Shown piece after piece: positions 10,545 to 63,365 of a stretch of 64,000 bases of DNA. The DNA is from Actinomycetes bacterium (GTDB taxonomy: Bacteria > Actinomycetota > Actinomycetes > JAHEKZ01), in contig JAJAYZ010000038.1 in NCBI GenBank assembly GCA_027118455.1, positions 4,422 to 68,421 of the forward strand, given 5' to 3'. Both the position numbers and the translations under genes were made by a program. Every line of letters starts with the position of its first letter. The first letter of the stretch is position 1. The notes under the pieces were generated by a model. That model ran no database searches, was not told where the DNA came from, and saw nothing but the letters and a program-made list of their open reading frames with translations.

Positions 10545-11404
10545 CGACGTCGCCGGGTCGACTGCCGACCTTTCTCATCATCGGTGCCATGAAGTCCGGA
10601 AGCACCACGCTCTATAACCACCTGCGTCAGCATCCGGAAGTAATGCTTCCCGACTACAAGGAGCCGGAGTTCTTCGTCGAGGAGAAGAACTGGTCGCGTG
10701 GAGTTGACTGGTATCGGAGTCTGTTCATCGGAGCAGGCGAGGTCACAGCGGTAGGCGAGGCGTCTACCAGCTACACCAAGTTCACTGAATTCGGGGGGGT
10801 ACCCGCTCGGATTGCATCGGTCCTGCCAGACGTACAACTGGTTTACGTGCTCAGGGAGCCCATCTCGCGAATGCGTTCGATGTACCAGCACCAGGTGCTC
10901 ACTCGTAGCGAGTCCCGGCCGATCAATGAAGCGCTCCTCAAGGACGACCGCTACCTGGGCCCTAGTCTCTATGCCGAGAACGCACGCCGTTACCTCGACT
11001 ACTTCCCCAGGGACCGGTTGCATTTCCTGCTGACCGACGATCTCCAAAAGGACCCATCAGCAGCTGTGCGAGGGGTTACCGAGTTCCTTGGTCTACCGGA
11101 CACTCCCGACTTCGTACCGACCGAACGTGTCGATCTGCGGACGAGCGACCGTCGGGCCGACCGTCGGATCAAGTCGCGTGTGAGGGGCCTGGCTGCCGTC
11201 GAGGTCGGATTTCGCAGGGCACCCTCGTCGGTGCAGAACCTGCTTCGCAGGGTGGCAACGCGTCCTTCAACCGCGAGTGGTCCCACCGAGTTGGACCCGG
11301 CAACGGTCGAGGTGTTGCTGGAGAAGGTTCGGCCCGACTTGGAAAACCTCACCAGGATGCTCGGACCCCAGTTCGATGCATGGGGGCTGCTCGACCTCCC
11401 CTGA
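10541..11404 (+). CDS. PAPS-dependent sulfotransferase family protein
   Basis: 5'-PSB loop FLIIGAMKSGSTTL and 3'-PB motif YVLREPISRMRSMYQH are present. The ATG at 10541 overlaps the GT2 stop (ATGA). The ORF track extends the frame upstream to 10271 but that part overlaps GT2 and is not credible. Confidence 0.8.
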   Translation: MTTSPGRLPTFLIIGAMKSGSTTLYNHLRQHPEVMLPDYKEPEFFVEEKNWSRGVDWYRSLFIGAGEVTAVGEASTSYTKFTEFGGVPARIASVLPDVQLVYVLREPISRMRSMYQHQVLTRSESRPINEALLKDDRYLGPSLYAENARRYLDYFPRDRLHFLLTDDLQKDPSAAVRGVTEFLGLPDTPDFVPTERVDLRTSDRRADRRIKSRVRGLAAVEVGFRRAPSSVQNLLRRVATRPSTASGPTELDPATVEVLLEKVRPDLENLTRMLGPQFDAWGLLDLP

Positions 11405-11480
11405 TGTGGGGTGATCAGCCTTGACGAAAGGCACGGCGGCCGACGACAGCTAGACCTACGCTAGACGGGCGGGCCGCACG

Positions 11481-12344
11481 ATGTGGCCGACGACCAAAGG
11501 GGAACCTGTGAAGCTTGAGCAGCGGCTGCGTGGAGCTGTGGCGCCAGGCGCCCGTACCGTGCTCGGAGCGTTGGGGCTTCACTCGGAGCCGAACTTCTTG
11601 ATCATCGGAACGCAAAAGGGCGGGACGACGTCGCTGTACGAGTACTTGATCCAACACCCACGGGTGTGTGCAGCTCGCCGCAAGGAGATCCACTACTTCG
11701 ACCGGTTCGAGAGCCTTGGCTGGGACTGGTATCGCAGTCAGTTTCCGCTCGCCGCGGCGCGACCTGGTGTTGTCACCGGCGAAGCCACGCCCTACTACTT
11801 GTTTCACCCAGACATCCCGCGCAGGGTCGCGGCTGCACTTCCTGAGGTGAAGCTGATCACGGTTTTGCGCAACCCCGCGGAACGTGCTTACTCCCACTAC
11901 CAACACTCGCTGCGGCACGATGTTGGGCTCAAGAGCTTCGAAGATGCCTTGGAGGTGGAGCGAGAGCTCTTGGCCGATCATGGTCTCGAGGAGGGTTTCT
12001 ACGATCGCGACGACTGGCATCGGCACTCCTATGTCACCAGGGGTTACTACGCCGATCAGCTGGAGCACTGGTTTGATCAGTTCCCACGCGGCCGACACCT
12101 CGTGCTCACCAGCGAAGACCTGCGGACTGACCCGGCGACGCAGATCGAACGGGTCGTCGCCTTCCTGGGGCTTCCCGAGTGGCAGCAGGCGACGTTTCCC
12201 TCCCACCATCGCGGTGGCTACTCAGTCGAACCTGGCGATCGTGCGGCCCTCGCGGAGCTTCGTACCCACTATCGGCCGCACAACCAGCGGCTCGGCGACC
12301 TGCTGGGCCAGCACTTTTCACGGTGGGACGACCCCGGCGCCTGA
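11481..12344 (+). CDS. PAPS-dependent sulfotransferase family protein (paralogue of the preceding gene)
   Basis: 5'-PSB FLIIGTQKGGTTSL and 3'-PB TVLRNPAERAYSHYQH are present. Length and architecture are the same as 10541-11404. Confidence 0.8.
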   Translation: MWPTTKGEPVKLEQRLRGAVAPGARTVLGALGLHSEPNFLIIGTQKGGTTSLYEYLIQHPRVCAARRKEIHYFDRFESLGWDWYRSQFPLAAARPGVVTGEATPYYLFHPDIPRRVAAALPEVKLITVLRNPAERAYSHYQHSLRHDVGLKSFEDALEVERELLADHGLEEGFYDRDDWHRHSYVTRGYYADQLEHWFDQFPRGRHLVLTSEDLRTDPATQIERVVAFLGLPEWQQATFPSHHRGGYSVEPGDRAALAELRTHYRPHNQRLGDLLGQHFSRWDDPGA

Positions 12345-12787
12345 CCCCGGCGTGTCGCCCGGGCATCGAGAGCGACACCATCGACAGTAGATGCTGGTGG
12401 GGGCCACTCGACCTGGAGCCGACTCATGTTCGACGCTGGTGCTGTTCTTGTTCTCGCCATTGTTGGTGGCGTGTGTGAGGTCGGGCTCGGGCTTTTGGTC
12501 GGTGGCATGATCGCCCACGGACAGCGTCACTCGCCATCGCAGTGGGAGTCGCACCTGGAGGGAAGTACTTTGAGTAACCGGACAGTCACCGAGCGCTAGC
12601 GAGCGTCGGTGGTCCCGGCCGAGATTGGCCGTTGGTCACTGCACACCCGGTCATTAGGGCATACTGAAGCGGCGCGCCGGCTCAGCTGTCCAGTCACTTC
12701 TGGTCTGTCCGGGTTCGCTCCCGCAATACTCTCGATCAGTGGTCAGCGCTCATACGCGTGCGTTCAGTCACAGCGAATGACAAGGGG

Positions 12788-14866
12788 ATGAGTCACCTGA
12801 GCAGGACTGACCGTCAACGGTCGACAGCACGAGGCACCTTTGGTGCTGGAAGCGCACGACGGGCCATCACCATGGCGACGGCCGCTCTGGTGGCGACGAC
12901 GGGTCTGATGGCCTTGTCTGCACCGGCTGGTGCTACCACTGCCCCGACGACGTATCAAGACCATGTCTATAGCAGTTCCGCCAGCGCACCCTCTTCGGAC
13001 AAGCCCCAGAGCAAGCTCTGGTTCAACGACGGATCCTGGTGGGCGTTGATGCTGGGGTCCTCGAGCGTGAACGTCTACCGCCTGATGCCCGACCACACTT
13101 GGCAGGACACCGGGACGGTCGTAGACACCCGGGCCACCAGCACCGGCGACGCGCTGTGGAGCAATGGAAAACTGTATGTGGCCAGTCGTACCGCTGGGAC
13201 CACAGGCAAGATCCGCATCTACCGCTTCTCCTATTCGGCTACCACCAAGAAGTACACCAAGGACACCGGCTTCCCGGTCTACATCGGCGGCGGTGGTGTC
13301 GAGAGTGTCACCATCGACAGGGACAGCCTCGGCCGGCTCTGGATCACATTCACCCGCGACAAGGCGGTCTGGGTCAGTCACACCACTATCTCCGATGCCG
13401 CCTGGCGCACGCCGTTCCGGATTCCAGGCTACGAAACGGACGGAGTGGCCGCTGACGACATTTCTGCGCTGGTCAGCCTCGGTGGGAAAATTGGGGTTTT
13501 CTGGTCTGACCAGCAATCAGGAAAGTTCAAGTTCGCACTTCACGTTGACACAGATCCCGACACAGTGTGGACGGGGGAGGTTCCCTTTCAAGGCTTCAAC
13601 ATCCCTGACGACCACATGAACATGAAGTCGATGCTTGGCGATGACCAGGGCCGACTGCACATCGCTGTGAAGACGTCGCTCGGTGACAATGGCGAGCCTC
13701 CCGAATCGCCTGGAGTCATTCTCATGACGCGAACGGCAGCAGGGGTTTGGTCCCAGGTGACGGTCGCCACCAAGGGCGACAACCTGACCCGCCCACAGGT
13801 GGTGCTCGACCGAGCGCACCAAGAGCTCACTGTGCTCATGTCCGATGAGTTCGGTGGGAACATCTACTCGAAGACCACGCCCCTCAACAACATCGCGTTC
13901 GCCCCTGGCAAGGGTGACGTCTTCATGTCATGGCCTGGCGCGGCGCTCAACAACGTCAGCACCTCGAAAGACCCGGTCAACGCGACGACGGGAATCGTCG
14001 CCATCGCGACGTCCAACACGGGCAACCGCTACTACCACGCCGAGATGCCCATCGATCCCGTTGCGGATTTGGATCCGCCATCTGTCGTGTCGATGTCACC
14101 CATCGACGGTGCAACAGGCGTGACGTCCACGGTGAGCCCAACGGTGACGTTCTCCGAACCGATGGACCCCAGCACCATTGACGCGAGTGCGTTCACCTTG
14201 GGTGGTCCCTCCGGCTCGGTCGCTGCGAACGTCACCTACGACGCCGCGTCCCGCGTCGCGACCCTCGATCCCACTGCGTCGCTTGCTGCCGGCGCGCCCT
14301 ACACCGCCACGATGAGCACGGGGGCGAAGGACCTGTCCGGGAATGCTCTGCCGGCCCCTTCGATCTGGAGTTTCTCTACCGGCGGAACTGCTGGCGAGAC
14401 AGTGAGCCTCACTCCCACTGCAGACGCGTACGTTTCGAGCGGGGCCTCGTCTTCGAACTTTGGTACGCAGACGTCGCTGATGGTGGACGGAAGCCCAGAC
14501 GTCAAGAGCTACCTCAAGTTCGACCTATCCAGTGTGGCGGGCCGCACGATCCAGTCAGCGTCCCTCTCGGTGCCTGTCACGACAAGCGGATCGGTGGGCA
14601 CTCAGAGTGTCCGGCTCACCGTGAAGGACACCTGGACCGAAGCCGGCATCACCTACGCAAACCGAGTTGGCCTCGACGCAACGGTTGGCACCTTCGGACC
14701 AACGGTGGGCGCCACGACCTACGCGGTGCCGTTGAGCCCCTCAGCCCTGCAGCCCAAGGTTGGCGGCCTCCTCTCCCTGGCGATCAGCTCGTCCAGTGGC
14801 GACGACGTCATCTTCGGCTCTCGGGAAAGCGCCCCGCCCACGCAGTTGGTTCTGGTTCTGCAGTAG
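12788..14866 (+). CDS. Secreted protein: N-terminal beta-rich domain, bacterial Ig-like domain, C-terminal beta-sandwich (carbohydrate-binding-like)
   Basis: Signal peptide MATAALVATTGLMALSAPAGA. An Ig-like segment reads PPSVVSMSPIDGATGVTSTVSPTVTFSEPMDPSTIDASAFTL..AGAPYTATMSTGAKDLSGNAL. The C-terminal part has a YLKFDLSSV motif. ATG at 12788 follows AAGGGG; the ORF opens at 12758. Confidence 0.6.
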   Translation: MSHLSRTDRQRSTARGTFGAGSARRAITMATAALVATTGLMALSAPAGATTAPTTYQDHVYSSSASAPSSDKPQSKLWFNDGSWWALMLGSSSVNVYRLMPDHTWQDTGTVVDTRATSTGDALWSNGKLYVASRTAGTTGKIRIYRFSYSATTKKYTKDTGFPVYIGGGGVESVTIDRDSLGRLWITFTRDKAVWVSHTTISDAAWRTPFRIPGYETDGVAADDISALVSLGGKIGVFWSDQQSGKFKFALHVDTDPDTVWTGEVPFQGFNIPDDHMNMKSMLGDDQGRLHIAVKTSLGDNGEPPESPGVILMTRTAAGVWSQVTVATKGDNLTRPQVVLDRAHQELTVLMSDEFGGNIYSKTTPLNNIAFAPGKGDVFMSWPGAALNNVSTSKDPVNATTGIVAIATSNTGNRYYHAEMPIDPVADLDPPSVVSMSPIDGATGVTSTVSPTVTFSEPMDPSTIDASAFTLGGPSGSVAANVTYDAASRVATLDPTASLAAGAPYTATMSTGAKDLSGNALPAPSIWSFSTGGTAGETVSLTPTADAYVSSGASSSNFGTQTSLMVDGSPDVKSYLKFDLSSVAGRTIQSASLSVPVTTSGSVGTQSVRLTVKDTWTEAGITYANRVGLDATVGTFGPTVGATTYAVPLSPSALQPKVGGLLSLAISSSSGDDVIFGSRESAPPTQLVLVLQ

Positions 14867-52934: not shown

Positions 52935-53455
52935 GCTCGCCGGACAGTGAGACCGTGTCGCCGCCGCGATCGGCAGGTGTCTGGGTTGCCGTCGATCCTG
53001 GCTCGGTGCGTACCGGGGTTGCGGCCTGCGACAGGGGTGAGGTGCTCGCCTCGCCCGTTACCACGCTGGGCCGCGGTGCGGCGGTGAGTGGGGTCGAGGC
53101 GATCGTCGCTGAACGCGAGGCGATCGGGGTGATCGTCGGCCTTCCGCTGTCCCTATCCGGCGCTGAGGGAACCGCAGCCCAGACAGCACGGTCTTATGCG
53201 GAGGACCTCGCAACGGCACTGGTGGTGCCGGTCTATCTGGTCGATGAACGGCTTACGACGGTGTCGGCCGGTGCTGCGCTTCGACAAGGGGGCCACGACT
53301 CTCGCTCGGCGCGCCGAGTGGTGGACCAGGCCGCAGCCACGGCACTGTTGCAGGGAGTGCTCGACGCTCGTGCCGCACGCGGCGTCAACTGTGGCGATGT
53401 GCTGGACGGTGGGCTCGGTGAGCGGGTCAACCCTGAAGGAGGAGACCGGTCATGA
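52931..53455 (+). CDS. ruvX: Holliday junction resolvase-like protein RuvX/YqgF
   Basis: [18 protein letters not shown] .. [15 protein letters not shown]. The start overlaps the alaS stop. Confidence 0.85.
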
Positions 53456-54540
53456 CCGCACCGATTCCTCCCGCGCCGCACCCGCACGGGCACCCAAGAC
53501 GTCGCCGGGCGCATCCGGCTCTGATCGTATTGGTGCTGCTGGGCTTGTTGGTCGGGGGCGCCGGGGTGGGCATGCGCCTGCTGGGCGGATCGCTGGGTGG
53601 GTTCGGCGCCAGTGACGACTATCTCGGGCCGGGCAGCGGTGAGGTCGTGATCGAGGTCGGTCCCGGTGACACCTCGTCGGCGATCGGGTCCACTTTGGAA
53701 CAGGCAGACGTAGTGGCCAGCGCTCAGTCCTTCGTCGATGCTGCCGTCGCTGACGACCGGGCGCTCGGGATCCAGCCGGGTTCGTACTCGATGCTTGCGC
53801 AGATGTCAGCAGCCGGAGCGTTGGAGCGGCTGCTCGATCCGGAGTCCCGCGTCCAGACCGAGGTGGCGATCCCCGAGGGTTTACGGCTCACCGACACCGT
53901 CGATCGCCTGGTTGCGGCCAGCGACCTTCCGCGCCGCGACTTCGAGCAGGCCCTGCAAAACCCACGCCGCCTCGGGCTCCCTGACTACGCCGATGGCAGC
54001 GCAGAGGGATTCCTCTTCCCGGCGACGTACACCTTCGACCCAGGGACATCGGCCGAGCAGATGCTCAAAGCCATGATCGACCGGTACGAGCAGGCCGCCC
54101 AAGACGTGGGCCTGGTCGACGGCGCTGTCGCTGCCGGTTACACGCCCCGTGAGGCGCTGACGGTTGCGAGCATGGCGCAGGCCGAGGTTGCCGAGCGTGA
54201 CTTCGGCAAGGCGTCGCGGGTGGTGGCCAACCGGCTCGAGCTCGGGATGACCCTCGGGTTCGACTCCACCGTCAACTACGCGCTTGGCTCCGATGACCTG
54301 ACGCTGGCCCAGGATCAGCTCGCTGTCGACTCCCCGTACAACACCTACGTCAACACCGGGCTGCCGCCTGGTCCGATCAACGCGCCAGGCGAGGCGGCGA
54401 TGGCCGCGGCGATTGCGCCACCCCCTGGCGACTGGCTCTACTTCGTGGCGGTCTCCCCAGACAGTGACAAGACCCAGTTCACCGCCGACTACCAAGAGTT
54501 CCTGCAGTTCAAGGACGAGTTCTACAGCCAGGTGCCGTGA
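53452..54540 (+). CDS. mltG: Endolytic murein transglycosylase MltG (YceG family)
   Basis: N-terminal TM ALIVLVLLGLLVGGAGV and a YceG domain (..LQMDSTVNYALG..). It follows ruvX as in many bacteria. Confidence 0.85.
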   Translation: MTAPIPPAPHPHGHPRRRRAHPALIVLVLLGLLVGGAGVGMRLLGGSLGGFGASDDYLGPGSGEVVIEVGPGDTSSAIGSTLEQADVVASAQSFVDAAVADDRALGIQPGSYSMLAQMSAAGALERLLDPESRVQTEVAIPEGLRLTDTVDRLVAASDLPRRDFEQALQNPRRLGLPDYADGSAEGFLFPATYTFDPGTSAEQMLKAMIDRYEQAAQDVGLVDGAVAAGYTPREALTVASMAQAEVAERDFGKASRVVANRLELGMTLGFDSTVNYALGSDDLTLAQDQLAVDSPYNTYVNTGLPPGPINAPGEAAMAAAIAPPPGDWLYFVAVSPDSDKTQFTADYQEFLQFKDEFYSQVP

Positions 54541-55412
54541 TGGCGCTGCCCGTGCGCCGGGCTGGCGTCCTTGGCCATCCGATCCAGCACTCGTTGTCGC
54601 CGGTCCTGCACCGAGCGGCGTACGACGCCCTCGGCATGGACTGGGACTACTCAGCCATCGATGTGACAGCCGATGGGCTAGCGGTGTTCCTGGACTCCCT
54701 TGACCCCGAGTGGGTGGGGCTCTCGCTCACCATGCCTCTCAAAGAGGCGGTGATTGATCTGCTCACTGAGGTCGAGCCGCGAGCTGCCACCGTGCGTGCA
54801 GTAAACACCGTGATCCTCGACGGCTCTGGTCGAAAAGGCTTCAACACCGATATCACCGGGCTGCAGTCGATCCTTTCCGATGCCCTGATTGGTCCTTCCA
54901 GCACGGCGACCGTTGTGGGGGCCGGCGCGACAGCGCGGTCCTCGGTGGCCGCTCTCGCAGCAGTAGGCGTGCCGCGGGTCGTTCTTCTGGCCCGCCGCTC
55001 CGAGGCGGTGGCGGAGTTGGCCGCGCTCGCTGATGTGCTCGAGATCTGCGGTGAGCCAGGGGCCTGGCCGCCCTCGCTCGACGCACTCGGCGCCGACGTC
55101 GTGGTCAGCACTGCTCCCGCCGATGCGGCCGCCGGCTTTCCGGTTCCCACCAGACCAGGCCTGTTGGTCGATGTTCTGTACCACCCCTGGCCGACGCCCC
55201 TGGCTGCTGCCTGGAAAGAGTCAGGAGGCCGAGTGGTTGGCGGTCTGGAGCTCCTCGTCCGTCAGGCGGTCGCCCAGGTCACCCTGATGACGGGCCGCAC
55301 GCCACCAGTCGGCGTGTTGCGGAGCGCCGGATCTGCTGCGTTGTCCGCCAGCGGAGGCCCGGCAGGTCGGGTCGGGCCTGGTCGCGAAGATATCGCTCAA
55401 GCGGAGCAGTAA
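54537..55412 (+). CDS. aroE: Shikimate dehydrogenase
   Basis: AGVLGHPIQHSLSPVLHRAAYDALG N-terminus and the NADP Rossmann VVGAGATARS. Confidence 0.85.
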   Translation: MMALPVRRAGVLGHPIQHSLSPVLHRAAYDALGMDWDYSAIDVTADGLAVFLDSLDPEWVGLSLTMPLKEAVIDLLTEVEPRAATVRAVNTVILDGSGRKGFNTDITGLQSILSDALIGPSSTATVVGAGATARSSVAALAAVGVPRVVLLARRSEAVAELAALADVLEICGEPGAWPPSLDALGADVVVSTAPADAAAGFPVPTRPGLLVDVLYHPWPTPLAAAWKESGGRVVGGLELLVRQAVAQVTLMTGRTPPVGVLRSAGSAALSASGGPAGRVGPGREDIAQAEQ

Positions 55413-55486
55413 CACAGCCGAAGCACCCTCTAAGGTCTGGTCGGTTCTCCCGACCGGCGACGCGGTCCGATCGCGAGAGGTGCACC

Positions 55487-56197
55487 ATGTCAGATCCCTA
55501 CGCCGCCGCACTGAGCGGTGCCGCAGGCCGTTCGCTTCAGCTTGACCAGGTTTTGCGGGCACTGCTGCGTCAGGCCCCGGACGTCGAGGCTGCAGCTGTT
55601 GTCTCGTTCGACGGTTTGCCGATGGCGTCAGCGCTGCCGGCCGGCATGGACGAGGACCGGGTGGCGGCGATGTCTGCTGCCCTGCTCTCGCTCGGCGAAC
55701 GGGCGGCGCAGGGCCTGGGCCGCGGTGACCTTTCCCAGGTCTATGTCGAGGGTGACAACGGCACGGTCTTCTTGGTCAGCGCCGACGACGAGGCGGTCCT
55801 GGTTGCCGTCGGACGAGTTGGCGCCAAAGTCGGCCTGATGCTCTTCGAGGTCAAGCAGGCAGCTGCTGCGGTCGGCACGGCGCTGCGTATCGACACCTTC
55901 CCCGAGACTCCGGTGCCGCTGCTCGTGCAGGTGGCTCCCGAACCACCGGCGCAGCACGTCCAGCCGATGCAGCCGGTGCAGCCGGTGCAGCAGGAGCCCC
56001 AGCCGGTGCAGCCAGTGCAGCCGGTGCAGCAGGAGGCAGTACCCCAACTTGCGCAGTCCAATGATGGGCAGCCGAGCAACGGTGGCGAACGCGAGGATGC
56101 TCATTCATCCATCGACCGATTCCCGCACCTCACACCGGTCCAGCCAGAAGACCGTCGGCCAGCTGTTGTGGCCTCCGACGGCAGCTCCTGGTCCTGA
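55487..56197 (+). CDS. Roadblock/LC7 (MglB/CvnB-like) domain protein with Q/P/V-rich C-terminal tail
   Basis: The N-terminal 125 aa (..AAAVVSFDGLPMASALPAGMDEDRVAAMSAALLSLGE..VYVEGDNGTVFLVSADDEAVLVAV..) fit the Roadblock/LC7 fold. The C-terminal tail is QPMQPVQPVQQEPQPVQPVQPVQQE. Confidence 0.72.
   Translation: MSDPYAAALSGAAGRSLQLDQVLRALLRQAPDVEAAAVVSFDGLPMASALPAGMDEDRVAAMSAALLSLGERAAQGLGRGDLSQVYVEGDNGTVFLVSADDEAVLVAVGRVGAKVGLMLFEVKQAAAAVGTALRIDTFPETPVPLLVQVAPEPPAQHVQPMQPVQPVQQEPQPVQPVQPVQQEAVPQLAQSNDGQPSNGGEREDAHSSIDRFPHLTPVQPEDRRPAVVASDGSSWS
55961..56035. repeat. Tandem 9-bp repeats (CAGCCGGTG) encoding (QPV)n in the Roadblock protein tail
   Basis: Seen directly in sequence. Confidence 0.75.
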
Positions 56198-56254
56198 CCG
56201 ACCTTTGAAGAACCCGCCCTAGCCAATCCCGTCATCGAAGGATCGTGACCTGAC

Positions 56255-57550
56255 GTGAAGCTCGAAGGTTCGCTTGATGCCTTCAGTCTTCCGGATGTCT
56301 TCCAGCTGCTGAGCCTGACGAAGAAGTCCGGAGGACTTCACCTGACCAATGGTCAGGTCTCCGGCAGCGTCTACTTTGCCGATGGCATGGTCACCGGCGC
56401 AGTTTCCGACATCTCTCGCCAAGCTCTCGCTCGCCGCCTAGTTGGCCTCGGTGCTGCCGACGACGCGGCATTACGGCGTGCTGTCGAACGGGCCGCCAAC
56501 GAAGGTGCTGGGATCGCTCGCGCTCTGGTCGAGGCGGGATCGGTTGACGGTTCGCTCGTGCAGCGCCTGGCACTCGAGCAGGCGGTTGACGCGGTCTTCG
56601 ACCTGCTGCGCTGGCCCAACGGCGACTTCGCCTTCGGCATGGGCGAGGAGAACCCCGACGACGTCGGGCTCGTCGTCACCGCTGAGCAGATCGTTGGGGA
56701 GGCAACGACACGGCGCGAGTCATGGGAGGCGCTGTCGCGGCTGATCCCGAGTCCGGATGTCGTGCTGACCATGCCGGTCGTTCTTCCCGAGAACACCACG
56801 TTGGACCGGGACGAGTGGGCTCTGCTGGCCCTCATCGACGGAACCCGTTCGGTTGGCGACCTCGTCGAGATCTCCGGTGCCGGGCAGTACCCGGTCGTCT
56901 CCACCCTGGCGACACTCATCCAGCGGGGTCTGCTGGTCCTTCGGGATGAGGAGAGCCCCGATCACGTCTCTCTTGTCATGCGTCGTCAGCAGCTGCTGGC
57001 GCCACTGGAGTTCTCGGCGGCGCCCCCCGCATCGGCTCAGGCCGGTCTACCGGATGTGCATATCCAGGCCAGGGGAGTTCCTCAGGGTGCGGTGGCTCTC
57101 GACGCGACGATCCCAGCGACAGCTGGCGGCCCACTGGCACCGGCGGCGCCGGTTCCCCCAGTCATGCCACCGTCGGTACCAGCTGGGGTACCTGCTCCGG
57201 CTGCTGCCGCGGCCGCCCCTGGCATGCTCCCAGGGGCCCACGACCCGGCCAACATCGTTCCTCCGCGCCCTGAGCCGTTCCTTCCCAAGAGGGACGTCGA
57301 TTACCCAGAACCTGTTCGAGCGCCTGGCTTTGCTGCTCCGGCCGCCTCCACCGCTAGGGCTCCCGTCAGCGCGCCCCCCGGAGCTCCTCCTGGCATGGCC
57401 GGGGCGCTCTCGGGTGGCATCGCTCGGGGTGCCAGCGGCGTCGGAGTGGCGACGGCCGCGGCACCAGCAGGTGACAGTGCGATCGAACGTGATCCAACGG
57501 TCAACCGCAGCCTGATGCTGCGCCTCATCGCCGGCGTCCGGGGGCTCTGA
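56255..57550 (+). CDS. DUF4388 (PATAN) domain protein with Pro/Ala-rich C-terminal half
   Basis: N-terminal MKLEGSLDAFSLPDVFQLLSLTKKSGGLHLTNGQVSGSVYFADGMVTGA matches the DUF4388 opening. A second DUF4388-like unit follows (..LALIDGTRSVGDLVEISG..). The protein ends in a PAPAAPVPPVMPP-type low-complexity region. Confidence 0.68.
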   Translation: MKLEGSLDAFSLPDVFQLLSLTKKSGGLHLTNGQVSGSVYFADGMVTGAVSDISRQALARRLVGLGAADDAALRRAVERAANEGAGIARALVEAGSVDGSLVQRLALEQAVDAVFDLLRWPNGDFAFGMGEENPDDVGLVVTAEQIVGEATTRRESWEALSRLIPSPDVVLTMPVVLPENTTLDRDEWALLALIDGTRSVGDLVEISGAGQYPVVSTLATLIQRGLLVLRDEESPDHVSLVMRRQQLLAPLEFSAAPPASAQAGLPDVHIQARGVPQGAVALDATIPATAGGPLAPAAPVPPVMPPSVPAGVPAPAAAAAAPGMLPGAHDPANIVPPRPEPFLPKRDVDYPEPVRAPGFAAPAASTARAPVSAPPGAPPGMAGALSGGIARGASGVGVATAAAPAGDSAIERDPTVNRSLMLRLIAGVRGL

Positions 57551-57551
57551 C

Positions 57552-58127
57552 ATGGCAACCAAACAACGTCGTCGGCACGGTGGTCAGGCCGTCAAGGTCG
57601 TCATCACCGGGCCGTTTGCGGCCGGGAAGACCACACTGATCCGCACGATCAGTGAGATCACCGTGCTTTCGACCGAGCGCGGAATCACCGACAGCACGAG
57701 GTCGCGCAAGAACGAGACAACGGTCGCAATGGACTTCGGGCGGATCACCATCGACCGCGAGCTGGTGCTCTACCTGTTCGGTACCCCAGGACAGGAACGC
57801 TTCGACTTCATGTGGGAGATCCTCGGTGAGGGGATGCTCGGCTACGTCCTCCTCCTCGATGCCAACCGCCCGGAGTCGCTGGCTGAAGCCGTCGGCATCC
57901 TTGAGGCGTTTCGAAAGATGGCCAGGGTCCCGTTCGTGGTGGCGTTGAACCGCACCACAGGGGTCGACGAGGTCGAGGAGGCCCGCATCCGGCAGGCCCT
58001 CGGGGTCGACAGCCGAGTGGCGCTCGTGCCCTGTGACGCCACCAACAAGGATTCGGTCAAAGCCGTGCTGCTGGCTCTGCTCTACTCGGTCTTGGACGAG
58101 GTCGAAACGGCGACAGCCGGCGTCTGA
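57552..58127 (+). CDS. Small Ras-like GTPase (MglA/CvnD-type ATP/GTP-binding protein)
   Basis: P-loop VVITGPFAAGKTTL, switch II LFGTPGQERF and a degenerate G4 (VALNRT) typical of conservon-type GTPases. The ATG overlaps the upstream stop. Confidence 0.75.
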   Translation: MATKQRRRHGGQAVKVVITGPFAAGKTTLIRTISEITVLSTERGITDSTRSRKNETTVAMDFGRITIDRELVLYLFGTPGQERFDFMWEILGEGMLGYVLLLDANRPESLAEAVGILEAFRKMARVPFVVALNRTTGVDEVEEARIRQALGVDSRVALVPCDATNKDSVKAVLLALLYSVLDEVETATAGV

Positions 58128-58144
58128 CGCCGAACGGACCCGAT

Positions 58145-58486
58145 ATGCGCTGGCTGACCCGCCGCTCAACGCAGGCATCACCTAAGGGGCGACATGCCGC
58201 TGGACGGGTAGCTCCCCTCCCCGCTGTGACTTCGCCTGCCTCAGCGTCGGCTGCAGGTGCGGCGGCTGCGGTTGCCGAACAGGTACCGCTCCGGGCGGCG
58301 ATCGTCCACCCTGTCCATGAACGGACGCCTGAGGCGATGCGAGGCATGACACCAGAGGCAACGCCTGTGGCGATGGCCAGTGGCGTCTACCTCGGCTTCT
58401 CTGACGGTTCTGGCCACGAGCTCGCGGTTGGCGACCCAAGGGTGAGTGCTTTTCGGGCAGTGGCCCGCACTCTCGTCGGCGTCTGA
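58145..58486 (+). CDS. Hypothetical protein (possible fourth member of the GTPase module)
   Basis: 113-aa ORF 17 nt after the GTPase gene. It is Ala/Arg-rich with no motif. Coding status is uncertain. Confidence 0.25.
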   Translation: MRWLTRRSTQASPKGRHAAGRVAPLPAVTSPASASAAGAAAAVAEQVPLRAAIVHPVHERTPEAMRGMTPEATPVAMASGVYLGFSDGSGHELAVGDPRVSAFRAVARTLVGV

Positions 58487-58593
58487 CCGGGCTCCGAAGG
58501 GTCGGTTCGCTCAAGACGGGCGGTCATCGGCCGATCTAGTCCAAGACATTGGTGCCCGGGGGACAGACCCTGTTGGGGCGACCGAGGGTGGAG

Positions 58594-60270
58594 GCCGTTG
58601 GCGTGAAGCAGCTGGGCGACATCCTGGTGCAGGACGGTCTGGTCACCGAAGACCAGCTCTTCGCAGCGTTTCGTGAGCACAAGGAACAGGGCAAGGCTCT
58701 CGGTCGGGTCCTCGTCGACCAGGGAGTCCTCACCGAGTCACAGCTGGTTGCAGCGCTCGCTCAGCAGATCGGACTGGAGTTCGTCGACCTCGGCGACTAC
58801 CCCGTTGATGGAAGCATCATCGCCAGGGTCTCCGGAGCCATCTGCCGTAAGCACTCGGCCCTGCCTTTGCGGATCGATGACGAAGGCAAACTGCTGCTCG
58901 CCATGGCTGACCCGGCCAATGTCTTTGCGATCGACGACATCCGCTCCATCACCGGATTCGAGGTTCGCCCCGTCGTTGCCACGCGCGCCGACGTGCTGGG
59001 TGCGATCGATCGATACTTTCGCGCCGACTCCGACCTGGACGACCTCACTGCCGTCATGCACGGCGACGAGGAGGAGGAGGACCTCGCTGGCCTGAAGGAG
59101 GTTGTCGAGGAGGCACCGATCGTCAAGTTCGTCAACCTCCTGATCAGTCAAGCGATTCAAGACCGAGCTTCTGATATTCACCTGGAGCCGGGCGAGCATT
59201 CTCTGGTAGTTCGCTATCGCATCGACGGCGTTTTGCATGAGGTAATGAAGTCACCGAAGAATATTCAGTCAGGCGTCATCAGCCGGCTGAAGATCATGTC
59301 GGACATCAACATTGCCGAACGTCGCATCCCGCAGGACGGTCGACTTTCGGTCAACCACCAGGGAAAGAAGATTGACCTCCGGGTGGCGACCCTGCCCACC
59401 GTCTGGGGCGAGAAGGTCGTCATGCGTATCTTGGACAACTCCAATGCGCAGATGGCGCTCTCTGACCTCGGGTTCTCGGAGTTCAACCGTGAGGTCTTCG
59501 CCCAGAGCTTTTCCAAGCCCTATGGGATGATCCTGGTGACCGGACCGACCGGTTCGGGAAAGTCCACGACGCTCTACGCGACGCTCAACCAGATCGCCCG
59601 CCCAGAGGTCAACGTCATCACCGTCGAGGACCCGGTCGAGTACCGTCTCCCCGGCATCAACCAGGTTCAGACCAATGTCAAAGCCGGCCTCACCTTCGCG
59701 GCGGCGCTGAGGTCGATCCTTCGCTGTGACCCAGATATCGTGCTGATCGGTGAGATTCGTGACCACGAGACCGCCCGGATCGCGGTGGAAGCTGCACTCA
59801 CCGGCCACCTCGTCCTCTCCACGCTGCACACCAACGACGCACCGTCGGCCGTCACCAGGCTCACCGAGATGGGGCTGGAACCGTTCTTGGTCGGGTCGGC
59901 GCTGGACTGCGTGCTCGCCCAGCGTCTTGCTCGTCGGCTCTGCTCCAAGTGCAAGGAGGCGTACCAACCGACCCCCGATGCCTTGGTTCAGGCTCGCTTC
60001 CCCTGGGTCGACGGCCAAGAGCTACCCACCCTCTACCGCGCGGTGGGGTGCCCGGCGTGCTCCAAGACCGGCTACCGCGGCCGGCTCGCCCTGCACGAGG
60101 TGATGGCGGTGTCTGAGGCCGTTGAGCGCCACGCGGTCGAGCACGCCTCGGCGACCGTCATCTCCGAGACGGCGCGTGCTGAGGGCATGCGCACCCTGCG
60201 TGACGACGGGATGTTCAAAGTTGCCAGCGGAGTCACCACGATGGACGAGATCCTGCGCGTCGTCGTCTAG
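58594..60270 (+). CDS. pilB: Type IV pilus assembly ATPase PilB (GspE family) with N-terminal tandem MshEN-type c-di-GMP-binding motifs
   Basis: Two consecutive 24-aa motifs, KQLGDILVQDGLVTEDQLFAAFRE and KALGRVLVDQGVLTESQLVAALAQQ. Walker A VTGPTGSGKSTT, Asp box, Walker B ILIGEIRD and a tetracysteine CSKC..CPAC are present. GTG at 58594 follows GGAGG; the ORF opens at 58549. Confidence 0.9.
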   Translation, partial: AVGVKQLGDILVQDGLVTEDQLFAAFREHKEQGKALGRVLVDQGVLTESQLVAALAQQIGLEFVDLGDYPVDGSIIARVSGAICRKHSALPLRIDDEGKLLLAMADPANVFAIDDIRSITGFEVRPVVATRADVLGAIDRYFRADSDLDDLTAVMHGDEEEEDLAGLKEVVEEAPIVKFVNLLISQAIQDRASDIHLEPGEHSLVVRYRIDGVLHEVMKSPKNIQSGVISRLKIMSDINIAERRIPQDGRLSVNHQGKKIDLRVATLPTVWGEKVVMRILDNSNAQMALSDLGFSEFNREVFAQSFSKPYGMILVTGPTGSGKSTTLYATLNQIARPEVNVITVEDPVEYRLPGINQVQTNVKAGLTFAAALRSILRCDPDIVLIGEIRDHETARIAVEAALTGHLVLSTLHTNDAPSAVTRLTEMGLEPFLVGSALDCVLAQRLARRLCSKCKEAYQPTPDALVQARFPWVDGQELPTLYRAVGCPACSKTGYRGRLALHEVMAVSEAVERHAVEHASATVISETARAEGMRTLRDDGMFKVASGVTTMDEILRVVV

Positions 60271-60474
60271 GCCCCGCTCGCCGCAACCCTCAGCCCGCAA
60301 CCCTCAGCCGATGGCGGGGTCGGTGGCCGCTTCTGATGACAGGCGGCCCTCGCAACTTAAATGACTAGTTCTCCAGGAGTCGGCTCAAGGGGTGACCTCT
60401 GGACGCCGAAAGACCGCTACAGGGGTACCGCCGCCGGTGGTGCTCGTGGTGTACGCCCAAGGAGGCAGTTCGAC

Positions 60475-62127
60475 GTGGAGACCACAGAGTTCAGCGGCGC
60501 GCCGCACGGTGATGACTCTCGCCCCGACGCTGCAGCACCAGGCTCGGACGCGGGGTTCTTCAGTCCAGCGCCAGCCCCCACGACAACCGACGAGCCAGAT
60601 ACCGAGTATGTGTCAGAAGCCGTCGCCGAAGTCGCTCCAGAGGCCGGCCAGGACCCCGCCGTTGACTCGGTGCCCAGCTTTGACCCCACATCTTTTAATG
60701 CCGGTTCGTTGCTGGCTCCTGAGGAGGCGGTACCGGACAACGCCGCGGCGTTGCCGATGTCGCTGGCCATCGCCGCTGAAGAAGCGGCCACCGTCGACGT
60801 CGCGAGTGAGCCGGAACCAGCCTCCTTCGACTACCAGGCTTTCCACGGTGACCAGGGCGGCGCTGCGGAACAGGGCGTGGCTGCGGTCGACGAGCCTCCG
60901 AGTGGGGCTGACGAGGGGTTGAGCGCAGCCGTGGAAGCGGCATCAGAGCCTGAGTACGTGCAGGCATACGCCGTCCCCGAGCAGATGGTGGAACTTGCTG
61001 ACGCGGAGTCCGAAGAGATCGCCTACTCGCGCGCCTCCACTGAACCGTCGCTGGCTGGGGACGAGATCGTCCTGGTCGAGTTGCTGCTGCACATGCTCGA
61101 GATGGGTGCATCAGACCTGCACATCACCGCAGGCGCCCGTCCTGCGATCCGGGTCAACGGTGAGCTGGCCCAGATGGACCAGTACCCCGTCCTGACGCCT
61201 CCGGTCATCCAGCGGGTGATGTACGCCGCAATCACCCAGCGCCAGCGAGAGGTTTTTGAAGAGGAGTTCGAGCTCGACTTCGCCTACTCCGTACCAGGAC
61301 GGGCCCGCTTCCGAGTGAACATGTACCGCCAGCGGGACTCCGTCGGTGCTGCCTTCCGCATCATCCCCTTCGAGATCAAGAAGCTCGAGGATCTCGGTGT
61401 GCCGACCCAGGTGGCCAACTTCGCGGCCCTACCGCGTGGGTTTGTCCTCGTCACCGGTCCGACCGGTTCTGGGAAGTCGACGACGCTGGCATCGCTGCTC
61501 GACCTGGCGAATCGGCAGCGCAAAGAACACATCATGACGTGTGAGGACCCGATCGAGTTCTTGCACCGCCACCAGTTGAGCCTGGTCAACCAGCGCGAGG
61601 TCGGCGAGGACACCAAGTCGTTCAAGAACGCCCTCAAGCACGTTCTGCGTCAAGACCCCGACATCATTCTCGTCGGTGAGATGCGTGACCTCGAGACGAT
61701 CGGGGTGGCGCTGACCGCCGCAGAGACTGGACACCTCGTCTACGCGACGCTGCACACCCAGGACGCCGCCCAGACGATCGACCGCATCATCGACGTCTTC
61801 CCGCCGCACCAGCAGCAGCAGGTGCGTGCTCAGCTCGCCCAGTCACTGCAAGGGGTGGTCTGCCAGACCCTGGCCCGCACCACCGACGGCAAGGGGCGGG
61901 TGGTGGCTTGCGAGATCTTGGTGGCTACCCCGGCGATCCGGAACCTGATCCGTGAGGGGAAGACCCACCAGATCTACAGCGCGATGCAGGCCGGAACCAA
62001 GTTCGGCATGCAGACCATGGACCAGCATCTGGCCGATCTCGTCAACAAGGGACGCATCACTTACGAGACCGGTACCGAGAAGTGCCACCACATCGAAGAC
62101 TTCAACCGGCTGACCGGCCGAGGCTGA
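60475..62127 (+). CDS. pilT: Type IV pilus retraction ATPase PilT-like, with a roughly 190-aa acidic low-complexity N-terminal extension
   Basis: Core: IVLVELLLHMLEMGASDLHITAGARPAIRVNGEL, Walker A VTGPTGSGKSTT, ILVGEMRD and the PilT His box ATLHT. GTG at 60475 follows AAGGAGG. The ORF opens at 60361. An internal ATG at 60985 would give a canonical-size PilT. Confidence 0.85.
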   Translation: METTEFSGAPHGDDSRPDAAAPGSDAGFFSPAPAPTTTDEPDTEYVSEAVAEVAPEAGQDPAVDSVPSFDPTSFNAGSLLAPEEAVPDNAAALPMSLAIAAEEAATVDVASEPEPASFDYQAFHGDQGGAAEQGVAAVDEPPSGADEGLSAAVEAASEPEYVQAYAVPEQMVELADAESEEIAYSRASTEPSLAGDEIVLVELLLHMLEMGASDLHITAGARPAIRVNGELAQMDQYPVLTPPVIQRVMYAAITQRQREVFEEEFELDFAYSVPGRARFRVNMYRQRDSVGAAFRIIPFEIKKLEDLGVPTQVANFAALPRGFVLVTGPTGSGKSTTLASLLDLANRQRKEHIMTCEDPIEFLHRHQLSLVNQREVGEDTKSFKNALKHVLRQDPDIILVGEMRDLETIGVALTAAETGHLVYATLHTQDAAQTIDRIIDVFPPHQQQQVRAQLAQSLQGVVCQTLARTTDGKGRVVACEILVATPAIRNLIREGKTHQIYSAMQAGTKFGMQTMDQHLADLVNKGRITYETGTEKCHHIEDFNRLTGRG

Positions 62128-62141
62128 CGGGAGCGTCACTC

Positions 62142-63365
62142 ATGGGAAACACGACTTTCCAGTACCAGGTCAGGGATAAGACCGGAAAGATCGTCTCCGG
62201 CACCCTCGAGGCCGAGTCGCAGTCTGCGGTGGCGCAAAAGCTCACCAGCATGGGCTACGCCACGGTCAGCATCTCCAAGGCCGGCGGCGGGATGAAGACC
62301 GATCTGAAGATTCCCGGCTTCGGCGGCAAGGTCAAGCTCAAGGACCTCTCAATCATGTCGCGCCAGTTTGCCACGATGATCAACTCTGGTCTCTCGCTGC
62401 TTCGTGCCCTTAACATCTTGTCGGAGCAGACACCTAACAAAGTGTTGGCCCAGGTGCTGGCCGAGGTACGTAACGACGTCGAGACGGGTAACCCCCTCTC
62501 CGGCGCACTGGCTTCGCATCCGCGGATCTTCCCGCCGCTGATGGTCAACATGGTGCGCGCCGGTGAGGTCGGCGGCTTCCTTGATGGCGTATTGCTGCAG
62601 ATCGCTGAGAACTACGAGGCCGAGGTCAAGCTGAAAGGCAAGATCAAGAGCGCCATGACCTACCCGGTCGTCGTCTTCGTGATGGCCATCCTGGCTGTCA
62701 CCGGAATGCTGCTCTTCATTGTCCCGGTTTTCGCCAAGATGTTCGAAGGCCTGGGCGCACCACTACCCCTCCCGACCAGGATCTTGGTGATGCTCAGCGA
62801 AATCATCAAGGTCGGGTTCCCATTTATGGTCGTCGGCTTCATCGTCTTCGTCGTGGTGTGGCGCAAGATCAAGCATAAGCAGCAGGTAGCGAACATCCTC
62901 GACCCGATCAAGCTCAAGATGCCGGTATTCGGACCCCTCATGCAGAAGATCGCCCTAAGCCGGTTCACCCGCAACTTCGGAACCATGCTGCAGGCCGGTG
63001 TGCCGATCCTGCAGAGCCTCGACATCGTGGCCGATACATCCGGAAACGTTGTGGTCGCGCGGGCGGTTCGTGACGTCCAGGAGAGTGTGCGCAACGGCGA
63101 GTCGCTGACCGCTCCCCTCTCCCAGCACGCAATCTTCCCACCAATGGTGGTGCAAATGATGTCAGTCGGGGAAGACACTGGACAGCTTGACGAGATGCTT
63201 CACAAGATCTCTGAGTTCTACGACCAAGAGGTTGAAGCGACCACTGAAGCGCTTACCTCCCTGATCGAGCCGCTGATGATCGCCTTTCTCGGTGGGATTG
63301 TCGGCGCAATGATCATCGCCATGTACATGCCCATCTTCAAGGTCTTCGACCTTATCCAGGAGTAA
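62142..63365 (+). CDS. pilC: Type IV pilus inner-membrane platform protein PilC (GspF family)
   Basis: Two T2SSF repeats (..SGLSLLRALNILSEQTPN.. and ..AGVPILQSLDIVADTSGN..). ATG at 62142; the ORF track opens at 62082. Confidence 0.9.
   Translation: MGNTTFQYQVRDKTGKIVSGTLEAESQSAVAQKLTSMGYATVSISKAGGGMKTDLKIPGFGGKVKLKDLSIMSRQFATMINSGLSLLRALNILSEQTPNKVLAQVLAEVRNDVETGNPLSGALASHPRIFPPLMVNMVRAGEVGGFLDGVLLQIAENYEAEVKLKGKIKSAMTYPVVVFVMAILAVTGMLLFIVPVFAKMFEGLGAPLPLPTRILVMLSEIIKVGFPFMVVGFIVFVVVWRKIKHKQQVANILDPIKLKMPVFGPLMQKIALSRFTRNFGTMLQAGVPILQSLDIVADTSGNVVVARAVRDVQESVRNGESLTAPLSQHAIFPPMVVQMMSVGEDTGQLDEMLHKISEFYDQEVEATTEALTSLIEPLMIAFLGGIVGAMIIAMYMPIFKVFDLIQE

Follow-up and report, generated by a model that had tools for sequence, protein, structure and literature searches.

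We analysed a 64,000-nucleotide stretch of contig JAJAYZ010000038.1 from an Actinomycetes bacterium, referred to below as the window, in which four genes for a putative GTPase-based regulatory module lie directly upstream of the genes for a type IV pilus motor. All of these genes are encoded on the forward strand. The Roadblock/LC7 (MglB-like) gene at positions 55487-56197 encodes a protein of 236 amino acids that matches Pfam Robl_LC7 over residues 21-107 (68.2 bits, E 5e-19). It is followed by a PATAN/DUF4388 gene (56255-57550, 431 amino acids), the product of which matches Pfam DUF4388 over residues 4-158 with 81.3 bits (E 8e-23, cut-off 25), and by a gene for a small Ras-superfamily GTPase (57552-58127, 191 amino acids) with Pfam matches to ATP_bind_1 (72.7 bits) and Ras (26.1 bits), each above its cut-off. 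The three domain calls of a preliminary description of the locus, which had been made from the sequence alone, are confirmed by these scores. The PATAN protein was 100% identical to one encoded on the contig of a metagenome-assembled genome (MAG) labelled Actinomycetia bacterium. The fourth gene, an open reading frame (ORF) termed ORF4 (58145-58486, 113 amino acids), gave no Pfam or NCBIfam match.

A gap of 1 nucleotide (nt) separates the PATAN stop codon (57548-57550) from the GTPase ATG (57552), and the start/stop overlap described earlier for these two genes is not present. Among the related loci described below the PATAN-GTPase spacing was -4 to +5 nt in 57 loci, the Roadblock-PATAN spacing was 1 nt in 22 loci, and ORF4 started 3-64 nt behind the GTPase stop codon in 59 loci and overlapped it by 13 nt in one (L014).

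Downstream of ORF4 the window encodes, in one locus, the type IVa pilus motor set of a PilB-type ATPase, a PilT-type ATPase and PilC, so that the module stands directly 5' of a type IV pilus operon, as had been described. The extension ATPase PilB (58603-60270) matches T2SSE with 464 bits, MshEN with 80.5 bits and TIGR02538 with 649 bits (equivalog cut-off 675.65). The retraction ATPase PilT (60475-62127) reaches 483.8 bits against TIGR01420 (cut-off 319.1), with the match covering residues 238-577 of a long ORF. The platform protein PilC (62082-63365) matches T2SSF in two stretches (228 bits) and the NCBIfam PilC models with 415-429 bits, below their equivalog cut-offs. On the 5' side of the module lie alaS, ruvX, mltG and aroE.

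No histidine kinase and no DUF742 domain was found with Pfam and NCBIfam among the ORFs of 53452-63365, in agreement with the earlier observation that a PATAN protein takes the place of the sensor kinase. Intrinsic terminators and sigma-70 promoters were not detected in 55300-58700, and a second copy of the module was not found within the window. The only Rfam match in 55300-58700 was RAGATH-32 at 56316-56394 on the reverse strand, inside the PATAN coding sequence; with 20.5 bits (gathering score 41.8, E 0.13) it is most likely due to chance.

Linkage to the pilus genes and a shared promoter motif

The preliminary description had proposed a gene-neighbourhood analysis in other actinobacterial genomes. 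An alignment of the PATAN protein was scanned over one genome per GTDB species, which gave relatives in 156 species, and the best 80 loci were fetched with flanks of 10 kb and read for collinearity by tblastn with the window proteins. These loci, cited here by L numbers, come from MAGs of Nanopelagicales, Sporichthyaceae, Acidothermaceae, Frankiales and Mycobacteriales and from the cultured Longivirga aurantiaca and Acidothermaceae strain B102. The order alaS-ruvX-mltG-aroE-Robl-PATAN-GTPase-PilB-PilT-PilC was collinear almost everywhere. Among the 58 loci taken as informative, with at least 6 kb of downstream sequence, the order of module and pilBTC was kept in 54, with PilB more than 60% identical in 52 of these and about 50% identical in two.

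Five divergent family members, sampled from a profile search with 533 clusters at E ≤ 1e-30, were all located next to pilus genes, in varying arrangements. In L093 and L094 the stop codon of the GTPase gene and the PilB start overlap, ORF4 stands between GTPase and PilB in L095, pilin genes lie between module and PilB in L097, and L096 has the order PATAN, decayed GTPase remnant, PilB. The remnant in L096 (1524-1841), a divergent metagenomic contig, comprises 105 amino acids that by eye can still be aligned to the GTPase (…TISEMTV…, …DRESVKAALVDVL…), with P-loop and G3 lost, and a sigma-70-family gene is located divergently upstream, in the place of the Roadblock gene. Insertions part the module from aroE in L004, where a toxin-antitoxin pair is present, and in L073, and in both the adjacency of module and pilB is preserved. 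Locus L004, which comes from a MAG, contains toxin-antitoxin pairs (PhdYeFM/PIN, nucleotidyltransferase, HipA/HTH) at 5031-5677 and 10924-13536, at the aroE-module junction as well as behind pilB; these insertions break the pilus operon, not the module-pilB junction.

The link to the pilus genes is present in most loci; it is not universal, since four loci have no pilBTC within 10 kb. They fall into two lineages: L070, L075 and L082, whose GTPases share 94-96% identity, make up one, and the other is represented by L071. In these loci genes for a priming transferase (Bac_transf), a flippase, a DegT aminotransferase and glycosyltransferases come after the module, and in L071 the transferase ORF begins on the last base of the ORF4 stop codon. 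We take this gene set to resemble pilin O-glycosylation loci. A Wzy_C gene, encoding an O-antigen-ligase-like membrane protein of 600-660 amino acids, occupies the junction of ORF4 and PilB in L013 (12.4-14.2 kb), L019 (12099-13985) and L066 (5045-7015), and about five further loci have a similar 2.1-kb insert. Glycan genes seem to accumulate at this junction and may represent a pilin-glycosylation island of variable size or an exopolysaccharide locus; alternatively, a glycan pathway may be served by the module as well.

Pilus genes of Rubrobacter and Actinoplanes are preceded by WhiG/FliA-type promoters with the sequence TAAA-N15-GCCGATAA (PMC8325347). In the related loci this published consensus was seldom met at up to 2 mismatches, and a lineage variant, TCAAG-N13-16-GCCGA[TA], recurs instead. 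Three predicted WhiG/FliA-like (sigma-28-type) promoters of this kind are present on the forward strand of the window. The promoter of the module (55397-55422, TCAAG-N16-GCCGAA) shares bases with the aroE stop codon, and 64 nt separate its end from the Roadblock ATG at 55487; that of pilB (58511-58535, TCAAG-N15-GCCGAT) ends 67 nt before the GTG at 58603, and that of pilT (60385-60410, TCAAG-N16-GCCGAA) ends 64 nt before the GTG at 60475. Searched as TCAAGN{13,16}GCCGAW, the motif has 3 matches in the 64-kb window compared to 0.38 expected, and 3 matches were reached in none of 100 shuffles. The 80 related loci, 1.26 Mb of sequence, contain 164 copies on the gene strand and 3 on the opposite one. 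Of 73 loci, 65 have it upstream of the Roadblock gene, and 37 of 61 have it upstream of the PilT extension; it recurs upstream of PilB and has some 30 further matches 6-9.4 kb downstream of the PATAN start, which is the pilin gene region. Individual loci have it ahead of pilin genes and of the Wzy_C gene, the latter in L003. In the related loci it was never found within alaS-aroE or before PATAN, GTPase or PilC, and it was absent from conservon loci and from the Deinococcus and Thermus loci.

The strand bias, positional specificity and constant spacing of the motif speak for the module as a separate transcription unit inside the pilus regulon, with the promoters being predicted ones. The window motif is a close variant, at equivalent positions, of the promoter of the Rubrobacter WhiG/RsiG c-di-GMP (cyclic di-GMP) pilus regulon (Schumacher et al. 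2021, PMC8325347); unlike the window locus, the pilus cluster in that paper is described with no mention of a GTPase, Roadblock or PATAN gene. The sigma fragment of L096 gave no significant match in the window, and a gene for the cognate sigma factor was not found there.

Proteins of the module and of the pilus motor

The motifs of the GTPase were judged by published criteria for prokaryotic small GTPases (PMC4316618). They comprise G1 GPFAAGKT, a Thr-Thr G2, G3 GTPGQ, a degenerate G4 NRTT and G5 DAT, and G2 reads E-T-T-V, with Thr where the Arg finger would be. At least 120 cluster representatives of homologues are 76-96% identical. In view of this conservation and the intact G1-G3 with the catalytic Gln, the GTPase is presumably a constrained, active switch. 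Close relatives have NRSD, NRLE or NRSS as G4, and distant family members have NKLD or NKVD; since the latter are canonical, the NRTT of the window is, judged from this comparison, a derived, degenerate form. Sequence identity is 41-47% to conservon GTPases encoded on Streptomyces plasmids, 38-41% to PATAN-linked GTPases of Deinococcus and Thermus, and 27% to Myxococcus xanthus MglA, and the match to MglA in the PDB has just 24 bits. The blocks TTVAMDFGRI, LFGTPGQERF and PFVVAxN are common to the GTPase and the conservon GTPases, and the window GTPase has neither the switch-I insert of 8 residues seen in CvnD proteins nor the NxFD that Group 2 members have as G4.

The Thr-Thr G2 and the GTPGQ G3 therefore place the protein in Groups 2-5, not in Group 1. 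The true MglA/SofG proteins of Group 1 were excluded as a class for this GTPase by its lack of an intrinsic Arg finger and by GTPGQ instead of TVPGQ. By its motifs and gene coupling it is an MglA-family protein of the Group 5 type, and judged from the Acidothermus entry described below it would fall in the Group 5 clade. Group 5 features that are present are Thr at the arginine-finger position, GTPGQ and a coupled MglB homologue, the Roadblock gene being located two genes 5' of the GTPase gene and hence within the four-gene coupling window used by the survey of PMC4316618. Group 5 is described as keeping a [NT]KxD G4, whereas the window GTPase has NRTT and the distant family members NKLD or NKVD.

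The Roadblock protein consists of the Roadblock domain (approximately residues 18-130), a hypervariable disordered Pro/Gln-rich tail and a C-terminal Trp-Ser (nt 56189-56194). Its relatives in the PDB are 7f8m (75.8 bits), CvnB5 (3leq, 46 bits) and MfpD (9hef, 40 bits), and it is 28-37% identical to conservon Roadblock proteins. Its length ranges from 166 to 439 amino acids across species, with a tail of about 30 to about 300 residues that cannot be aligned between species. The C-terminus is Trp-Ser in 61 of 77 species, and Trp is the penultimate residue in 71 of the 77. Trp-Ser is absent from the most distant family members L094, L095 and L097, and conservon CvnB proteins have neither the tail nor the Trp-Ser. 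With this distribution the C-terminal Trp-Ser looks like a tethered docking motif.

An AlphaFold2 (AF2) model of the PATAN protein, computed from 103 sequences, has a predicted local distance difference test (pLDDT) score above 90 for residues 1-252 and a tail that is disordered except for one C-terminal helix. The PATAN core contains a helical alpha-clip insertion (residues 57-118), modelled as helices inserted in the beta core, and is followed by a winged-helix-like unit (185-223) and a helix (237-252). Two motifs further downstream are at least 90% conserved in the 103-sequence alignment: GAHxPxxVVPPRPEPFLPxR in the disordered Pro/Ala linker (residues 327-346, nt 57233-57292) and the C-terminal helix IERDPxVNRSLMLRLIAGVRGL (residues 410-431, nt 57482-57547). 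A strict form of the C-terminal motif, ...NRSLMLRLIAGVRGL, is present in at least 81 of 150 representatives. The helix was also considered as an amphipathic membrane anchor, which its hydrophobic moment did not support (0.35, compared to 0.32 ± 0.15 for shuffles).

The PATAN model has no significant global match in the PDB. Locally, its insertion fits the N-terminal domains of MshE (5htl), PilB (7lkn) and PilF (8pdk), which are c-di-GMP-binding, at 1.5-1.9 Å over some 50 residues with E>0.1, and PilB N-termini give weak DUF4388 matches. Binding of c-di-GMP by the insertion was rejected, as it has no NF053729 match and no site with 6 or more of the 11 MshEN motif positions. A receiver (REC) domain was not found in the protein, as judged from the lack of a Pfam Response_reg match. 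Residues 160-252 were examined as a homologue of CvnC/DUF742; an hhalign P of 0.012 with a probability of 3.6% indicates generic winged-helix likeness only. The winged-helix-like part is acidic (7 Lys/Arg and 13 Asp/Glu) with a hydrophobic third helix (QYPVVSTLATLIQ), and because of this acidity DNA binding by it is unlikely.

ORF4 has an atypical GC content at the three codon positions (0.75/0.64/0.63, compared to 0.64/0.44/0.82 for the GTPase gene), which fits its Ala/Pro-rich composition, and it was called as a gene by independent pipelines. The family, with total lengths of 49-316 amino acids, has an N-terminal basic motif MxWLxRRxxxGRH with invariant Gly15 and Arg16, a variable Pro/Ala linker and a C-terminal mini-domain of a beta-hairpin and a helix (residues 81-111, nt 58385-58477, AF2 pLDDT 94-96). 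A clean hidden Markov model (HMM) of the C-terminal 40 or so residues gave a single forward-strand match right after the GTPase gene in 60 of the 80 loci, including loci without pilBTC. The 39 homologues in databases are all annotated as hypothetical, have no Pfam domain and, where the source is named, come from Actinomycetota; those that were looked up have the same gene context. By its pattern of conservation ORF4 is a real gene that represents a new small-protein family, and the earlier suggestion that it belongs to the module holds. Because it follows the GTPase gene even where pilBTC is missing, it is to be counted with the module rather than with the pilus gene set. A likeness of ORF4 to the PilB MshEN domain was traced to a PilB fragment (L084) in the seed and rejected as an artefact, the clean HMM matching no PilB frame, and a relationship to CvnC was dismissed at an hhalign P of 0.66.

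The PilB ORF is open from TTG 58549, and a Shine-Dalgarno sequence (GGTGGAGG) precedes GTG 58603. The latter is most likely the start, in view of this Shine-Dalgarno sequence and of the predicted promoter, which is situated upstream of this GTG and overlaps or precedes TTG 58549. The PilB N-terminus carries two tandem c-di-GMP motifs of the MshEN type, RLGxx(L/V/I)(L/V/I)xxG(L/V/I)(L/V/I)xxxxLxxxLxxQ, with 8 and 10 of the 11 positions (NF053729, 63 bits); because of these motifs, which are absent from the PATAN protein, the pilus is probably also under c-di-GMP control. PilT has an N-terminal extension that is absent from typical PilT proteins, composed of the peptide M-E-T-T-E-F-S-G and an acidic disordered linker of about 190 residues ahead of the ATPase core. 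A GTG start with AAGGAGG 7 nt upstream, together with M-E-[TS]-x-x-[FY], is present in 41 of 54 loci, and the disordered stretch between peptide and core has about 85-270 residues among relatives. The most likely start of PilT in the window is GTG 60475, with AAGGAGG 7 nt upstream; ATG 60361, upstream of the predicted promoter, is probably not used. The open frame of PilC reaches back to GTG 62082; as the family models begin to align at about residue 24, ATG 62142 is a possible start. In relatives PilC is followed by pilin (N_methyl) genes. In L094 the second ATPase after PilB (11530-13134) is a 534-residue T2SSE protein with its own MshEN domain, in place of a PilT with the disordered N-terminal extension.

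Relation to known GTPase and PATAN systems

In components and order (MglB>PATAN>MglA) the window trio is like the Group 5 MglA-MglB-PATAN neighbourhoods, which were tabulated for six Aquificae and Roseiflexus, with Acel_1323 as the one actinobacterial row (Wuichet & Sogaard-Andersen 2014, PMC4316618, Table S2). Acel_1323 of Acidothermus cellulolyticus (193 amino acids, MglA-PATAN-MglB) is assigned to Group 5 in the same table. Orthologues from Acidothermaceae MAGs are 72-75% identical to the window GTPase, and from taxonomy, gene order and length Acel_1323 is probably an orthologue as well. The trio, tabulated in 2014 also for Aquificae and Chloroflexi, is therefore not new to Actinobacteria. 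That survey was restricted to signalling genes and drew no link to pili, whereas the window module adjoins pilBTC.

The MglA/MglB system of M. xanthus likewise consists of a small Ras-like GTPase and a Roadblock partner, and governs type IV pilus activity. The window genes, which had been described as of the MglA/MglB type, do not encode such a system in the strict sense: the Group 1 MglA of M. xanthus has an intrinsic Arg finger and TVPGQ, whereas the window GTPase has Thr-Thr and GTPGQ. In Myxococcus the mgl genes are apart from the pil genes and from partner genes (RomR/RomX/RomY, SgmX, SofG), unlike the window module. Accessory small proteins such as RomY tune the GTPase-activating protein (GAP) in M. 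xanthus. Output in Myxococcus proceeds via the tetratricopeptide repeat (TPR) protein SgmX, not via PATAN, and the window sequence gave no indication of pole-to-pole switching, as a polarity switch of the kind named in the earlier description would imply.

Cyanobacterial PatA-type regulators (PATAN-REC proteins such as PixE, PixG, PilG and LsiR) have a PATAN domain with an alpha-clip insertion, as in the window. They operate with a receiver domain and a chemosensory kinase; the window module has neither, and its input would be the GTPase. The window PATAN protein has in addition the winged-helix-like unit, the long disordered linker and the conserved C-terminal helix.

Conservons (CvnA-D, and mycobacterial MfpB-E) have a homologous GTPase and Roadblock protein in the same relative gene order as the window. 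The conservon (AGPS) is defined by four proteins, a kinase, a Roadblock protein, a CvnC-type guanine nucleotide exchange factor (GEF) and a GTPase, and the window module is without two of these, the CvnA histidine kinase and the CvnC/DUF742 GEF. The related loci that were examined have no kinase either, and the module of the window is flanked by aroE on the 5' side and pilB on the 3' side. True CvnC proteins score 102-115 bits for DUF742 (PF05331), whereas the middle gene of the window encodes a PATAN protein (PF14332) with no DUF742 match. The Group 2 motifs of conservon GTPases are NxFD (G4) and DAR (G5), compared to NRTT and DAT here. The module is therefore not the Streptomyces conservon of the earlier comparison, homologous though its Roadblock protein and GTPase are. 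The conservon outputs that have been described to date concern gene regulation or DNA gyrase, and none concerns pili.

Proposed function and alternatives

What was observed directly is which genes are present, their motifs, conservation and coupling, and the promoter motif shared with the pilus genes. On this basis we consider it fairly probable that the four genes form a cassette which is its own transcription unit before pilBTC, within a shared predicted sigma regulon, and which acts as a GTPase/GAP switch with PATAN acting on PilB/PilC. The GTPase would alternate between GTP and GDP states, with the Roadblock protein as its GAP, like MglB for MglA and like MfpD, a demonstrated GAP, for MfpB. 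ORF4, translationally coupled to the GTPase, may be a cofactor of the GTPase cycle; that it supplies an arginine in trans is a speculation prompted by a GTPase class without an arginine finger. The PATAN protein would be the output arm, receiving its input from the GTPase in place of a phosphorylated receiver domain, and would contact the PilB N-terminal domain and/or the cytoplasmic N-terminus of PilC and thereby permit or block pilus extension. We read the Trp-Ser of the Roadblock protein, the linker motif and C-terminal helix of PATAN and the METxxF peptide of PilT as docking peptides of a multi-protein assembly, which on their disordered tethers would hold the components and the motor ATPases together.

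The assignment of the PATAN arm to PilB/PilC was made because of contacts in Synechocystis, the GAP precedents of MglB and MfpD, and the genomic evidence. In Synechocystis the PATAN domain alone binds PilB1's N-terminal domain as well as the N-terminus of PilC and switches motility, and PilB and PilC are the only PATAN partners known from experiments (10.1101/2021.06.11.447907). Pilus regulation by MglA-family proteins is known from Myxococcus and Bdellovibrio. The resemblance of the PATAN insertion to the N-terminal fold of PilB and MshE, and the weak DUF4388 matches of PilB N-termini, would agree with such a role. All protein-protein contacts, the GAP activity and the direction of regulation are drawn here by analogy with these systems.

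Several observations weigh against a role in pilus control. The G4 motif NRTT has no Asp, and guanine specificity of the window GTPase is not assured. The PATAN insertion resembles PilB N-terminal domains only locally (E>0.1). The promoter variant was derived once the loci had been viewed, has 3 mismatches to the published consensus and was counted in related loci that are not independent. The four loci without pilBTC within 10 kb have an intact, well-conserved module including ORF4, and the PATAN-GTPase-Roadblock modules of Deinococcus radiophilus and Thermus oshimai are not adjacent to pilus genes. Furthermore, the alaS-ruvX-mltG-aroE block on the upstream side is equally syntenic (64 of 66 loci), so that collinearity within the clade is partly inheritance and by itself no proof of function. 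These last points would fit a GTPase module with a general role in cell polarity or the cell envelope, located beside pilBTC through inherited gene order with no functional coupling, the more so as the GTPases of the loci lacking pilBTC are 94-96% identical within a clade. However, inherited order would not explain why module, pilB, pilT and pilin genes have a promoter motif in common that is not found in alaS-aroE, why GTPase gene and PilB start overlap in L093 and L094, why the module stays beside pilus genes in the rearranged loci L096 and L097, or why insertions split aroE from the module and not the module from pilB. We consider this explanation unlikely. In T. oshimai the DUF4388-GTPase-Roadblock module of plasmid pTHEOS01 (L099, 6360-10116) is followed by a protoglobin-domain gene and a gene for an EAL (c-di-GMP phosphodiesterase) protein, which hints at a tie of this module class to c-di-GMP signalling in another phylum.

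The module might instead, or in addition to the pilus motor, control a surface-glycan pathway, namely pilin O-glycosylation or exopolysaccharide export. Glycan genes follow ORF4 in two independent lineages, the L071 transferase starting at the ORF4 stop codon, Wzy_C or a similar insert stands between ORF4 and PilB as described above, the promoter motif precedes the Wzy_C gene in L003, and the only PATAN gene found in a search of plasmids, from Thermomicrobium, is located in a polysaccharide cluster. Yet about 40 of the 54 pilus-linked loci have no glycan gene at the junction, the experimentally known PATAN partners are PilB and PilC, and the glycan genes may be a variable island between module and pilBTC, with pilBTC located past 10 kb. 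We consider such glycan control improbable. Even less probable, in our view, is a trimmed conservon acting on pilus gene transcription, its PATAN protein binding DNA through the winged-helix part. The identity of 41-47% to conservon GTPases with its three common sequence blocks, the order Roadblock - middle protein - GTPase, which mirrors CvnB-CvnC-CvnD, the weak MarR-type matches of PATAN residues 161-252 (E 0.004), as in DUF742 proteins, and the hhalign P of the winged-helix region against CvnC would agree with this. It is opposed by the missing CvnA kinase and DUF742, the low hhalign probability, the acidic winged-helix-like region with its hydrophobic third helix, which is unlike a DNA reader, a G4 that is not NxFD, the missing CvnD switch-I insert, and the absence of the promoter motif from conservon loci.

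The pilus-controlling GTPase/GAP switch, which we prefer, can be extended to a control hub for type IV pili in a monoderm, in which the GTP state of the GTPase would determine if PilB or PilT is admitted to the PilC platform by the PATAN scaffold. In such a hub the invariant Gly-Arg of ORF4, part of its GRH motif, could provide the missing catalytic arginine, ORF4 thus being a co-GAP with the Roadblock dimer, and the Trp-Ser of the Roadblock protein, the C-terminal helix of PATAN and METxxF of PilT could dock both ATPases on disordered leashes. That all of these elements hold jointly appears rather doubtful. If correct, the hub would supply Group 5 MglA systems, which occur from Aquificae to Chloroflexi, with their first function and mechanism.

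The trio itself has been known since 2014, and the general idea of a connection between PATAN, MglA and pili has been voiced before. What is new is the wiring to a pilus operon in a family with relatives in 156 species, the shared promoter type, ORF4 and the tethered terminal motifs; the literature that we searched contained no description of this actinobacterial arrangement and no experimentally characterised Group 5 system. Modules of the Group 5 MglA/MglB/PATAN type occur widely, in Aquificae, Chloroflexi, Deinococcus-Thermus, cyanobacteria and Actinobacteria, without an assigned function, and contact between PATAN and the pilus motor is known only from cyanobacteria, where the input is phosphorylation. 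The arrangement described here suggests a concrete, testable function for the module, the GTPase-gated control of pilus extension and retraction. Its carriers are abundant soil and freshwater actinomycetes, with Longivirga aurantiaca, Acidothermaceae strain B102 and probably Acidothermus cellulolyticus as cultured representatives. For Actinobacteria, in which only sigma-factor and c-di-GMP control of pili have been described so far, the module would provide a first handle on post-translational pilus regulation.

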